From Pirellulales bacterium (GTDB lineage: Bacteria > Planctomycetota > Planctomycetia > Pirellulales > DATAWG01), in NCBI GenBank assembly GCA_038210495.1, contig JBBQWR010000007.1, positions 1 to 64,000 of the forward strand: DNA of 64,000 nucleotides. The letters are read 5' to 3'. A program made the translations under genes and the position numbers. The notes under the pieces are model-generated. The model saw only the letters and a program-made list of their open reading frames with translations. It searched no databases and was not told the origin of the DNA. Shown piece after piece: positions 40,461 to 52,603 of the stretch (within the stretch, counting starts at the first letter, position 1; each line of letters begins with the position of its first letter).

Positions 40461-40658
40461 GTGGATTGTTGCTGCCACCGCACGATTGTCGAACTCATCG
40501 GCAACACGACCACCGACGCGGGCCTCATCGTTCGTGCCGCCCTCGATCAAACGGACTATCCAACTGGACTAAAAATCAGCGACAACCAACTGGCCCAAGT
40601 CAAACTGATCCGAGCTGACTTTCATGGCGAATGGAACTACGCCGTCCGCCCTCGCTAA
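40461..40658 (+). pseudogene. Possible C-terminal remnant of an ISAzo13-family transposase
   Basis: ELIGNTTTDAGLIVRAALDQTDYPTGLKISDNQLAQVKLIRADFHGEWNYAVRP recalls the conserved C-terminal region of ISAzo13-type transposases (from memory). It is only 65 aa with no upstream DDE region in frame. Confidence 0.3.
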
Positions 40659-40847: not shown

Positions 40848-42203
40848 ATGCGAACCCACGCTCGTTCAGCCACTGGGATTCTTACTATTATAATCGGCTT
40901 CGCTTTCGCCTTTCTCGCCATGGCGGCCGGCGCCATGAATTTCGTTTCGGCCGAGGAAAATCGGCCCGTGAAATCACTGAATCATTTTCCGTCGGTCGAC
41001 AAACTGCCGGCGCATCCCGACTTGCCCGGTCCGCTGGTGATGCTCGACGGCACGCGCGTGTCGAGCATCGAGCAATGGAACACGTCGCGCAAGCCCGAGC
41101 TCAAGGCGCTATTCCAGCATTACATGTACGGCTTCTTGCCCACGGCGCCGGAAAAAATCTCGGCCGAGGTTTTCCGCGAAGACAAGGATTTTTACGCCGG
41201 CAAGGCCACGCTACGTCAGATTCGCATTTCGCTCGGACCAGCCGGTTGTCCGCCCATCAATCTGTTGTTGTTTGTTCCCAATCGCAGCGCCACCAAAGCC
41301 AGCCCTCCCGTCATTTTGGGCCTCAACTTCAACGGCAATCACACGGTCGATCTGGACAAACGGATCGCGATTCCGACCGCTTGGATGCCCGACGACCCGA
41401 GCGCGGGCGTCGCCAATCACCGCGCGACGGAAAAAGGGCGCGGCTCGCAGGCCGATCGTTGGCAAATCGAGCATGCCATCGACCGCGGGTATGCGGTGGC
41501 GACGTTTTATTACGGCGACATTGCGCCCGACAAATCGGGGCCGCTGGGAGGCGTGATGCCTTACTTCATTCGCAAAGAAAAAACAACGTCGACGGACGAC
41601 GACTGTGGGGCCATCGCCGCCTGGGCTTGGGGCCTGAGCCGAGCGGTCGATTATCTGCTGACGGATTCCGATATCGACAGTCATCGGATCATCGTCTTCG
41701 GCCATTCGCGAAACGGCAAAGCGGCCATTCTAGCCGGAGCGATGGACGACCGGATCGCCGCGACGATCGCGCATCAAGCCGGTTGCGGCGGCACATCTCC
41801 CAGTCGCCGTCGGAATCCGAAGGGGGAATCGGTCAAAATCATCAACGAGCATTTTCCGCACTGGTTCGACGGCGCGTTCAAAATGTTCGTCGGCCAGGAG
41901 GACAAGTTGCCCGTCGATCAAAATTGCCTGATCGCCCTCTGCTGCCCACGGCCCGTGCTGCTGACCTGCGGCGAGGTGGATCAATGGGCCGATCCGGCCG
42001 GCGAGCTAGAAAATCTGCGGGCCGCGGACGACGTCTACCGTCTCTTCGGCGTCGAAGGAATTTCCAAGGACGCCAAACCGGAAAACAACAAGCGGATCGG
42101 CGGCCATCTCGCCTATTACACCCGCGAAGCGCCGCACACCGTCGATAAAGTTTTCTGGGAGGCCTTCCTCGACTTCGCCGATACGGCCTGCCCGGCTAAA
42201 TAG
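40848..42203 (+). CDS. Secreted carbohydrate esterase family 15 (glucuronoyl esterase)-like protein
   Basis: Signal peptide. GHSRNGKAAILAGAMDDRIAA matches the G-C/H-S-R-x-G catalytic Ser motif of CE15 glucuronoyl esterases. Confidence 0.65.
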   Translation: MRTHARSATGILTIIIGFAFAFLAMAAGAMNFVSAEENRPVKSLNHFPSVDKLPAHPDLPGPLVMLDGTRVSSIEQWNTSRKPELKALFQHYMYGFLPTAPEKISAEVFREDKDFYAGKATLRQIRISLGPAGCPPINLLLFVPNRSATKASPPVILGLNFNGNHTVDLDKRIAIPTAWMPDDPSAGVANHRATEKGRGSQADRWQIEHAIDRGYAVATFYYGDIAPDKSGPLGGVMPYFIRKEKTTSTDDDCGAIAAWAWGLSRAVDYLLTDSDIDSHRIIVFGHSRNGKAAILAGAMDDRIAATIAHQAGCGGTSPSRRRNPKGESVKIINEHFPHWFDGAFKMFVGQEDKLPVDQNCLIALCCPRPVLLTCGEVDQWADPAGELENLRAADDVYRLFGVEGISKDAKPENNKRIGGHLAYYTREAPHTVDKVFWEAFLDFADTACPAK

Positions 42204-42284
42204 AAAGGCTGCCGATCAAGTCGGGCAGATGACTTGTAGAGCCGAGAAGTGGCGCGGTGGTTTAGGTTGGGCCTATCTGTTGGC

Positions 42285-44242
42285 CGGCTCTTTCGTATGC
42301 CGGTGCCTCAATAGCCCGACCATGCTCCGTTTCCACTTCCCGCTCATCGAACCGGACAGGCGGATTTCCCGCATCCGGCTCTCGGACAAGGTTATCATGC
42401 GTTCGCCCACGGAAGGTTGGGTTTCAGCCGGCTGAGCCGTACCAGGCCCAGTTCGTTGTGCAGGTATTCGGCCGGAAATCGCCGATACTTCTGCTCCTGC
42501 ACTTTGTGCTTGCGACACAACCACTGGCGCAGCCGACGCGCGACATGCTGATCGATGGCTCGATACGCAGCGCCCGCCGGCTCAAGACAGAAGTAAGTCG
42601 CCCAGCCAACCAACTTGCGGTTGAGTCGACGAGTCATCTCCTTGGCGTCTTGGAGGGTGGTGTTGGAAGCGGTCATCTCGCTGGTCTCGCGACAGAGTCG
42701 CTGGACTTTCTTTCGCGACGGTTTCGTGCCCAGATAGGCGCGACCCGTGCGCGGCGAGTAGCACCGCCCCAACGTATAGCCCAGAAAGTCGAAGTCCTCT
42801 TCGGGCAGTCGGCAAACGTGCGTCTTCGTCTCGTTGACCGTCAGCTTGAGCGTCTGCATCATGTTCCGCATGGCGGACATCGCCGCATCGGCGCTGCCGC
42901 GGCAGCAGATCACGAAGTCATCCGCGTAGTTGACGATCCGAGCGCGAAACCGCCGCTCGTGTCCCAACGTCTTCCAGCCCAGCACGAATCGACGCATGTA
43001 GAGATTGCTGAGCAGCGGCGAGATCGGGGCGCCTTGCGGGCTGCCACGACCCGTGTCCTTGTTGCGAGTCGTTCGTTGCAGATTGCCCCGCGCGTCCGTC
43101 TCTTCCACCGGCGCTTCGAGCCACATCTTAACTAGATGCAGCACCTGCTTGTCGCTTACGCGACGCGCCACCGATGTCATCAACTCCGCGTGGGGAATGC
43201 TGTCGAAGTATCCGCTTAGGTCCGCGTCCACAACCTCCGTATGCCCCGTGCTTAGCAGCCGATGGACCTCCTGTACGGCGTCCAACGCGCTGCGTCCGGG
43301 CCGGTAGGCGTATTGCTCCGGCTGCAAGTCGGTCTCGAAGATCGGTTCGAGAACCAGCAAGGCAGCCATTTGCACGACACGATCCTTGATCGTGGGAATA
43401 CCCAACGGTCGTTGTTTGCCGTCCGGCTTGGGAATGTACACCCGCCGGACTGCCTGGGGTCGGTACGTCTTCGTCCTGAGTTCCTCCGCTAGTTCGTCCA
43501 ACCAGCGCTGCACGCCGTAGGCTTCGATGTCCGCGAACGTCTGTCGATCGACTCCCGGAGCGCCTCCGTTGAGGAGGCAGCGGCGGTGAGCCGTCCACAG
43601 CACATCCTGACGATACACCTTGTCGTACAGCGCATAGAAACGATAGTTGGGCGATTCCTTCGCTTTGGCATGCAACGCTTCCTGGAGCTTCTGAACCGTA
43701 GGTAGAGTTGGTAGGCTCATCGCCAATCTTGCCATTGCTGGCTTACGGTCCCGCGCCACTTCCGGCGTTGGCCTTGAACTGAGGTCCCTTCGCTCCGCCG
43801 GAGTTACCCGGCTTCCTCGCTACTACGGACCTCTCCGTCACCCCACGCGGCCCGGCTCTGTCCCTCGCGGGCTGCCAGTTGACGGTCACGCGCCGTCACC
43901 GCTGGGGCTTCCCGTGTTGCGTCAAGTTTCCTTATGCAGACATGCCGCCGCCAATACCCCGGTGGGATCGCTGAGGTGTTTCGCTCGACTCATATCCTCT
44001 CAGCGACAGCGGCCTTCCCCGTCCCTTTGACAGGTCGGCTCCCACATTACCCGTTTCGAGGCCTACGCGGCGTTCACTCACGTTGCGGCCTGCCTGCTCG
44101 CGGAGTTGCCCAAGGCAACCCTTTACACCGAAGGCTCCGGCGGCTTCGTTACCTCCACCGCCGCTCCGATTGCTACCGGCCGGAGCGAAACCTTGCCGGG
44201 CGGGAATTGCACCCGCTGAAAACTCACGCCTTTCACGGCGCA
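42285..44242 (-). mobile_element. Bacterial group II intron (full-length, ~1.95 kb) with an intron-encoded RT/maturase; the 3' boundary is approximate (+/-30 nt)
   Basis: The minus-strand 5' end GUGCGCC lies at plus 44236-44242. ~480 nt of domains I-III precede the ORF. Domain V-like GAGCCGGAUGCGGGAAAUCCGCCUGUCCGGUUC (plus 42349-42381) with an AGC triad lies 13 nt after the ORF stop. A domain VI region follows. Confidence 0.75.
42395..43759 (-). CDS. Group II intron reverse transcriptase/maturase (intron-encoded protein)
   Basis: RT domains 0-7 ([15 protein letters not shown] in [10 protein letters not shown]), X/maturase domain ([19 protein letters not shown]) and a C-terminal D/En-like region. 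Confidence 0.9.
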
Positions 44243-44327
44243 CAAAGGGGACGGGAGGCTGGTGGCATGGGAGTTGCAAAGTTAGAGCGGCGACTGGTTA
44301 GTCCTTTTAATCCCATCCGAACCTTGC

Positions 44328-45033
44328 TTGAAGGAATCGCACGTGGACGTGCTCGTAATCGACATCGGCGGCACCTCAGTCAAATTCTGGCACACGGCGC
44401 ACGAGGAGCATCGAAAGTTTCCTTCCGGCAAGCGACTCACGCCGGAGGTCATGATTAAAGAAGCGATGGACTTGGTCCGCGATTGGGAGTGGGAGGCGAT
44501 AGCGCTGGGATTGCCCTGTCGGGTCAGCAACGGCCGCTCCGTCGAAGATCCGCAGAACCTCGGGCCCGGTTGGGTAGGGTTCAATTTCGCCGCTGCGTTC
44601 GGCAAGCCCGTGCGAGTGATGAACGACGCATCCCTGCAAGCCTTGGGAAGCTACGACCGGACGCATGGTATTTTTGGGTCTTGGCACTGCGGTCGGCTCG
44701 GCCTATATCGCCGATCATCTGGTGCTTTCGCTCGATCTGGGCCGGATGAAAGTCGGGGATGAGCCACTCTACAAGTTGCTGGGCGACGAAGGCTTCGAGG
44801 AGCTCGGCGCCAAGAAATGGCAGGCCGTCGTGCACCAAGTCATTCCCGCCCTGAAAAACGCCATGATGGCCGACTACGTCGTCCTCGGTGGCGGCAGCGT
44901 CAAGCACATCGACGAACTGCCCGAAGGGGTCCGTCGCGGCCACAATCGGACCGTGGTCGAGGGAGGCCGAAAGCTCTGGGAAGAACTCCCCGATCCGGGC
45001 GAAAAACATGCCGGGGTTTGGCTCATTCTTTGA
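44328..45033 (+). pseudogene. ROK-family sugar kinase (glucokinase-like) interrupted by a +1 frameshift near a T5 run at ~44660-44672
   Basis: ORF 44328..44762 (VLVIDIGGTSVKF ATPase motif, ...NDASLQALGSYDRT) and ORF 44665..45033 (MVFLGLGTAVGSAYIADH..., a ROK GxGxGxG motif) are consecutive parts of one ROK protein in different frames. Confidence 0.5.
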
Positions 45034-52300: not shown

Positions 52301-52603
52301 GTGGGCATCAAAGTCGAGCGCGTGAAGAAGTTGCAAGAGGGGCATCCTAACCTGATCGACATGCTGATCGATGGCCGGGTGCAGATGATCATGAACACGC
52401 CGCGGGGCAAGGGCGCCCGAACGGACGAGGGCCGCATTCGGGCCGCCTCGGTCAGCCACGGCGTTCCCTGCATCACGACGATTCCGGCCGCCGAGGCGTG
52501 CGTCAAGGCCATGGAGGCGCTGCTCGAAGAATCGATGGGCGTCCAGGCGCTTCAGGACCGGGTGATCAAACAGCCGGCAAGAGAGAATCTAACGAACGTG
52601 TGA
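49322..52603 (+). CDS. carB: Carbamoyl-phosphate synthase large subunit
   Basis: [58 protein letters not shown]... with duplicated ATP-grasp halves and a C-terminal MGS-like domain. No carA is adjacent upstream. Confidence 0.95.

Follow-up and report, generated by a model that had tools for sequence, protein, structure and literature searches.

A full-length group II intron, probably of class F, with guanosine at the branch site in an intergenic spacer of a Pirellulales bacterium

The DNA analyzed here (the window) comprises 64,000 nucleotides from a Pirellulales bacterium (GenBank assembly GCA_038210495.1, contig JBBQWR010000007.1, positions 1 to 64,000 of the forward strand). It contains a gene for a CE15-type glucuronoyl esterase, followed by a frameshifted gene for a ROK-like sugar kinase, and the 116-bp spacer between these two genes is interrupted by a minus-strand element, 42236–44243, that is a full-length bacterial group II intron of a known kind. 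An earlier reading of the sequence by eye (the original prediction) had proposed a group II intron with a reverse transcriptase (RT)/maturase at this place, antisense to both flanking genes and in noncoding DNA, and the proposal was borne out, with all of the defining parts located on the minus strand. The copy is distinguished by one base in domain VI, where guanosine occupies the position of the branch-site adenosine. The features of the locus, in window coordinates, are as follows (EBS, exon-binding site; IBS, intron-binding site; ORF, open reading frame).

40848–42203, plus strand: CE15-type glucuronoyl esterase (PF22244, E = 6.5e-33); its stop is 32 nt from the intron 3′ end.
42236–44243, minus strand: complete group II intron, 2008 nt, 5′ GUGCG ... 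CUCUAC 3′.
44251–44255, minus strand: IBS2 (CCCGU), 5′ exon positions −12 to −8, 5 bp complementary to EBS2.
44244–44249, minus strand: IBS1 (CCCUUU), the final six bases of the 5′ exon, 6 bp complementary to EBS1.
44239–44243, minus strand: 5′ splice-site consensus GUGCG, read from the sequence.
44078–44218, minus strand: domain I segment, Rfam RF02003 (group-II-D1D4-4), 110.7 bits against a gathering score of 49, matched over the full model length.
44050–44054, minus strand: EBS2 (ACGGG), a variable segment in the conserved context GAAA-NNNNN-AAU.
44023–44028, minus strand: EBS1 (AAAGGG) in a domain I hairpin loop, intron positions 216–221.
42395–43720 (longest ORF to 43759), minus strand: RT/maturase in domain IV, with YADD and X/GIIM and no endonuclease domain.
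42349–42381, minus strand: domain V, with the AGC triad, a 2-nt bulge, and a 5-nt terminal loop, GAAAU, from the Rfam alignment.
42239–42345, minus strand: domain VI, 107 nt, with a 13-bp basal helix carrying a single bulged nucleotide, a CGG/CCG helix, and a distal insertion.
42258–42326, minus strand: domain VI insertion, ~75 nt, with a long helix, a conserved internal loop, and a 5-bp hairpin capped C-GAAA-G; helices 4 and 6 covary.
42242, minus strand: branch-site position, the bulged nucleotide at −7 from the 3′ end; G in the window copy, A in the family.
42236–42238, minus strand: 3′ terminal UAC (AY consensus), from the sequence and the ends of relatives.
44328–45033, plus strand: ROK-like sugar kinase, frameshifted, as two overlapping ORFs in different frames; its start is 84 nt from the intron 5′ end.

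The boundaries were set by comparison with 80 related loci that were fetched from genomes and aligned to the window with blastn. The alignment ends of about 80 relatives concentrated at 44243 (5′) and 42236 (3′), and the flanks diverged directly outside both intron ends in more than 45 of the copies. The listed copies, at their 5′ end, started with GUGCGCCGUG or a near variant and were preceded by unrelated DNA; GUGCG was found in most of the 58 relatives listed, with GUGUG, GUACG, or other variants in a few. At the 3′ end, 46 copies finished in ...CCACCGCGCCACNNCUCGACUCUAC and then ran into unrelated DNA, and the terminal nine bases of the intron are those of the curated 3′ end of Ni.ha.I1, an intron from plasmid 1 of Nitrobacter hamburgensis X14. 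The start sequence GUGCGCC given in the original prediction is present, but the position assigned to it, 44242, was off by one, and the other end, read as 42285, has to be moved 49 nt further. The same prediction had held that the exact 3′ splice site could not be fixed by eye, which is understandable given the unusual length of domain VI. The 64-kb window contained no second copy of the intron and no fragment of one. An exact match of 19 nt at 52357–52375 to intron positions 1685–1703, within the ORF of the intron-encoded protein (IEP), had an E value of 0.003 and is probably due to chance.

The intron had also been described as apparently complete. All of the defining parts are indeed present, but at 42242 a G stands in place of the branch-site adenosine. 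A bulged adenosine 7–8 nt from the 3′ splice site is a feature of the family; in the window copy the helix and the bulge are retained, but the base is G. The branch position is A in 26 of the 26 other aligned sequences and in 76 of the 76 matches to the motif at other sites, counted over all fetched loci. G was found only in L083 and L084, which represent the same locus as the window, and A is also the base in L081, which at 92% identity is the nearest independent copy. Across the domain V–VI region, the G at 42242 was the sole real deviation from positions conserved in at least 90% of the family. No alternative bulged A was found in the domain VI helix or on its 3′ strand; the bulge can slide by one place, and the bulged base is then still G. 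Branch-site mutants of other group II introns are able to splice through hydrolysis in the first step but branch poorly. Bacterial retrohoming is described in PMC3280974 as proceeding normally via the excised lariat, and PMC3753933 gives the branch adenosine as a requirement for lariat formation. Because retrohoming uses the lariat and the lariat needs the branch A, the window copy would probably make little or no normal lariat and be largely immobile. From the distribution of A and G, we infer that the substitution is specific to the window copy, which would be a recently disabled member of an otherwise active lineage.

The bulged position lies in a structure that is well supported by covariation. 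Domain V was found at 42381–42349, as the predicted hairpin with an AGC triad 13 nt past the ORF stop. The Rfam model for domains V and VI (Intron_gpII, RF00029) matched 42383–42305 on the minus strand with 37.9 bits (E = 2.6e-5) under relaxed thresholds, and the domain I model RF02003 matched the same strand with 110.7 bits, so the covariance models proposed earlier as a check on the intron both agreed with it, and the failure of the models that would have refuted it did not occur. The structure of domain VI was derived with RNAalifold from 27 non-identical copies, and pairs were counted on an author-specified structure. In the 27 sequences, 99.7% of domain V cells were paired, with 5 compensatory pairs and a 5-nt loop in the alignment, and the basal helix of domain VI was 99.4% paired, with compensatory change in 7 of its 13 pairs. 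For the two domains together, 92.9% of cells were paired, as against 84.6% in shuffles and 33–44% with slid partners; 25 pairs had changed on both sides, and the observed values were reached in 0 of 500 shuffles. From domain V to the intron 3′ end there are 112 nt, roughly double the usual length, and the intron ends 3 nt past the basal helix. Because the insertion is enclosed by this covarying helix and the end follows 3 nt later, the extra length lies inside domain VI and is not of the domain VII type. Within the insertion, the internal loop UGAGGCA/CAACAG is near-invariant and the GAAA loop is closed by a C-G pair. Among the copies examined, those from planctomycetes, acidobacteria, and Bradyrhizobium have the insertion; Ni.ha.I1 and one of the relatives (L011) lack it and have a short cap at this place.

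The exon-binding sites were located from the pairing of each copy with its own 5′ exon. Intron positions 216–220 (EBS1) paired with exon positions −5 to −1 in 88% of cells across 55 copies, and the runner-up position reached 64%. EBS2 was found by inspection of the variable loop with variable spacing allowed, after which at least four contiguous pairs with the copy's own 5′ exon were counted in 43 of 53 copies (500 exon shuffles: mean 22.9, maximum 30); a fixed-offset scan of 5-mers gave none. In the window, the insertion target is 5′-CCCGU-C-CCCUUU/A-3′ (CCCGUCCCCUUU/A), the slash marking the point of insertion. Since EBS1/IBS1 and EBS2/IBS2 pair correctly, the window site is a cognate insertion site. 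Two relatives with an EBS1 of the window type, L018 and L145, were also inserted after CCCCUUU. The copy at position 45 of L145, which encodes a protein 85% identical to that of the window (P0003), follows ...AUCCCCUUU and has the same IBS1 as the window copy, consistent with a target preference shared within the sub-lineage. Of the 219 conserved columns in the 5′ 520 nt of the intron, the window copy deviates at 4, a count in the middle of the family range. On the other side, the interval from the esterase stop to the intron 3′ end contains a hairpin at 42209–42228 (CUGCCGA-UCAAG-UCGGGCAG), with 7 nt between hairpin and intron and, in the minus-strand reading, a U-rich stretch after the hairpin. 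A terminator scan of the intron region called none, this hairpin included.

The ORF at 42395–43759 encodes 454 amino acids from a GTG start and contains YADD. It scored 358.4 bits against TIGR04416, the equivalog for group II intron reverse transcriptase/maturase (cut-off 300), and matched RVT_1 and GIIM only, followed by a 29-aa tail, without a DNA-binding/endonuclease domain. Among the best 120 of thousands of homologues, most were 441 aa long, and the ATG at 43720 is therefore probably the true start (or the codon at 43735, for a 446-aa product), and not the GTG at 43759. The intact 454-aa protein with YADD and an X domain that had been proposed thus stands as to ORF, motif, and domain, and is shortened to a probable 441 aa. 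The protein deviated at 2 of 182 highly conserved positions (at least 97%), N388T and G393E, both in the GWxNYF region of domain X. Both changes were found in P0001, and E393 was found in P0002; they appear to be traits of the lineage because they are common to its closest relatives. Compared with L081, the ORF contained 79 synonymous and 24 nonsynonymous codon differences, which indicates that the lineage has been under purifying selection. Judged by its sequence, the IEP looks intact and sound.

On these protein and RNA traits, the intron was filed as a putative g3-like member of class F (IIF). The window protein was 50.6% identical over its full length to ORF 75551–76864 of N. hamburgensis plasmid 1 (NC_007959; tblastn against plasmids). 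This ORF falls within Ni.ha.I1, which is listed as g3, Bacterial F, at 75444–77354 (Toro and Martinez-Abarca 2013); the rule of the curated database is to assign a class when the top three curated matches agree in class (PMC4028801). The IEP of Ni.ha.I1 also lacks an endonuclease domain. The RF02003 match lies at an equal offset from the 5′ end in the two introns, and in Ni.ha.I1 the RF00029 match reaches the curated 3′ end. Domain V and the basal helix of domain VI are homologous, down to a 3′ end that reads ...CUCG-A-CUCUAC. That end (...CUCGACUCUAC) differs from the window intron at the branch site only, and its longer form (...CCCGUCCUCGACUCUAC) shows the terminal motif and basal helix of the window family, the insertion being replaced by a short cap. 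At 1911 nt and with its short domain VI cap, Ni.ha.I1 thus differs from the window intron, which is 2008 nt long and has the ~75-nt insertion and G for the branch A.

The comparison with described IIF introns points in the same direction. In the account of Nagy et al. 2013 (PMC3753933), IIE and IIF introns are small IIB-like ribozymes of 450–700 nt with a 5-nt domain V loop, and a long, highly structured domain VI is given there as a IIF trait. The window intron matches in all of these respects, with a ribozyme of ~680 nt, the domain V loop GAAAU, and a domain VI of 107 nt. A further criterion for IIF is an α′ motif at the end of the DId3 stem-loop together with an extra DId3 bulge loop. The biochemically characterized IIF introns Pe.th.I2 and Ge.ur.I1 resemble the window intron in the traits that PMC3753933 describes for them, including the possession of both EBS1 and EBS2. 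They self-splice in vitro, forming lariat or circles, and differ by this description from the window copy, which is without the branch A. RmInt1 of Sinorhizobium meliloti (class D) is likewise endonuclease-less and EBS/IBS-guided and is usually found outside genes or in insertion sequences (IS); compared by description, it differs in having an IEP of another class. Most listed class F introns are in putative noncoding sequence (Toro and Martinez-Abarca 2013). A sequence search of the PDB returned only the expected group II reverse transcriptases, with GsI-IIC RT as the best match, and was uninformative on class.

Collectively, these results make it very probable that the locus contains a single full-length class F (IIF) intron, composed of a ~680-nt ribozyme and a 441-aa IEP, that is inserted at a cognate site and is largely immobile owing to its branch A-to-G substitution. 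Such an intron would have reached the esterase/ROK spacer by retrohoming or retrotransposition, with a cognate DNA target there recognized through base pairing of EBS2 and EBS1. The branch adenosine would have mutated to G in the window copy, while the ribozyme core and the protein otherwise stayed intact. If transcribed, the copy could still be excised as linear RNA by first-step hydrolysis with the help of the maturase, yielding little or no lariat.

Several points weigh against this account. In some group II introns, guanosine can act weakly as the branch nucleophile, so immobility is probable rather than certain. The RF00029 score of the window copy is 2 bits under the gathering score of 40, and the class rests on one curated reference and RNA traits rather than on a phylogeny of all classes. 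An exact scan of metagenome contigs for the empty junction GGCAGATGACTT/AAAGGGGACGGG found none, and the insertion event is therefore deduced from the exon pairing and the boundaries of paralogues.

The first of these points bears on the alternative that survives best, namely that the intron is fully functional and currently mobile and that the branch G is tolerated as a nucleophile or bypassed. With every other part intact (5′ GUGCG, domain V, the exon-binding sites, and the protein), with the lineage under purifying selection, and with breaks in the L083 and L084 contigs that suggest other copies in their communities, such activity can be envisaged; it is nonetheless unlikely, as the invariance of A in all 76 copies elsewhere argues for strong constraint and the 3′ strand of domain VI supplies no other bulged A. 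Considerably less probable is that the G is a sequencing or assembly error and that the real base is A. One base is concerned, and the sequence recurs within the community, where it could have been assembled in collapsed or chimeric form; however, L083 and L084, contigs from separate runs (SRR19962015 and SRR24807096), matched the window with 100% identity along 4103 and 2775 nt, and both carry G at 42242 together with the unique esterase flank. The occurrence of G in two independent assemblies therefore makes a sequencing error unlikely.

Finally, the 112-nt distance from domain V to the 3′ end and the hairpin at 42209–42228, 7 nt from the intron, might suggest either a class B-like domain VII extension or a IIC intron that targets a terminator hairpin, but there is hardly any chance of either, given that the covarying 13-bp basal helix closes in the extra sequence with the intron end 3 nt later, that domain V is full length and EBS1 and EBS2 are both present, and that the hairpin is in the 3′ exon, with none in the 5′ exon and a negative terminator scan. 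Extended class B introns (B.c.I4 type, domain VII) likewise have their 3′ splice site unusually far from domain V, which defeats the eye and standard profiles; in these, however, an extra 53–70 nt follow domain VI and splicing moves 50–70 nt downstream, whereas in the window intron the extra sequence is nested within domain VI and the end is canonical, 3 nt past the helix. IIC introns have a short ribozyme that lacks EBS2. They are placed by PMC1702495 downstream of a hairpin in the 5′ exon.

The intron is antisense to both neighboring genes, and their transcripts therefore cannot splice it out. No credible minus-strand gene flanking the intron was found in the ORF list, and a promoter scan gave a single weak plus-strand promoter-like match, inside the ORF. 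The frame of the ROK-like gene, the immediate neighbor of the 5′ exon of the intron, changes near 44650–44665, just before the LGLGT motif and at a place with no homopolymer run, and the frameshift reflects either a real pseudogene or an assembly error. The repaired protein scored 22.2 bits against PF00480 (cut-off 22.9) and had weak matches to polyphosphate glucokinases; an exact-protein look-up of the ROK fragment returned no record. The intron separates the ROK-like gene from its former upstream sequence, and a link between this separation and the frameshift is speculation. Upstream of the esterase, the C-terminal 59 residues of an ISAzo13 transposase remain at 40461–40658 and mark an old, eroded IS insertion. 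The neighbors named in the original prediction (a CE15-like esterase, an IS remnant, and a frameshifted ROK gene) thus exist, but the similarity to ROK is weak and the remnant is not adjacent to the intron. The idea of a local hotspot for mobile DNA has no support beyond the IS remnant, at a distance of 1.6 kb, and the single frameshifted neighbor. Metagenome relatives of the esterase were at most 55% identical, none of them had a ROK-like gene nearby, and no uninterrupted syntenic locus was found among them. GC skew over the 64-kb window contained no usable signal of replication direction.

The short-read contigs L083 and L084, from independent runs, stop at domain V, ending at window positions 42357 and 42352, respectively. 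Contig ends within the intron are the pattern of an assembler meeting a repeat, and further intron copies are therefore probable in the communities from which these contigs come. Several relatives carry an insert of ~1.9 kb at one point of the RT ORF, near the YADD codons (about window position 42917): L060–L063 (Singulisphaera acidiphila NC_019892), L078, L055/L056, and L073. The insert of L060 and that of L078 are each another group II intron, unlike the host intron in type, with an Rfam D1D4-2 match of 105–113 bits and a domain V/VI match of its own; such an arrangement is a twintron, in which one intron is nested in another, here by homing into the RT gene of a class F intron. Inserts of 1.2–2.5 kb were seen elsewhere in L077 and L026 (about window position 42312) and also in L013, L003, L019, and L074, and two of these fall in the hairpin of the domain VI insertion.

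Two further ideas were entertained tentatively, and the odds are well against them: either the copy with the bulged G still excises and persists, through obligate hydrolytic splicing or with G as the nucleophile, or the domain VI insertion is an uncharacterized tertiary-contact module. In the latter case, the role of the module could be to hold domain VI in place for branching in this IIF sub-lineage. What is new here is the G at the branch site, where all other copies examined have A; the intron is otherwise an ordinary one, probably of class F. For annotation, the analysis supplies exact boundaries and a class for an intron that lies just under the Rfam threshold for domains V and VI. The branch A-to-G substitution would offer a natural example of an otherwise intact intron copy disabled by a single base, and it advises caution in reading such loci, as an intact ORF together with domain V does not equal a mobile intron.

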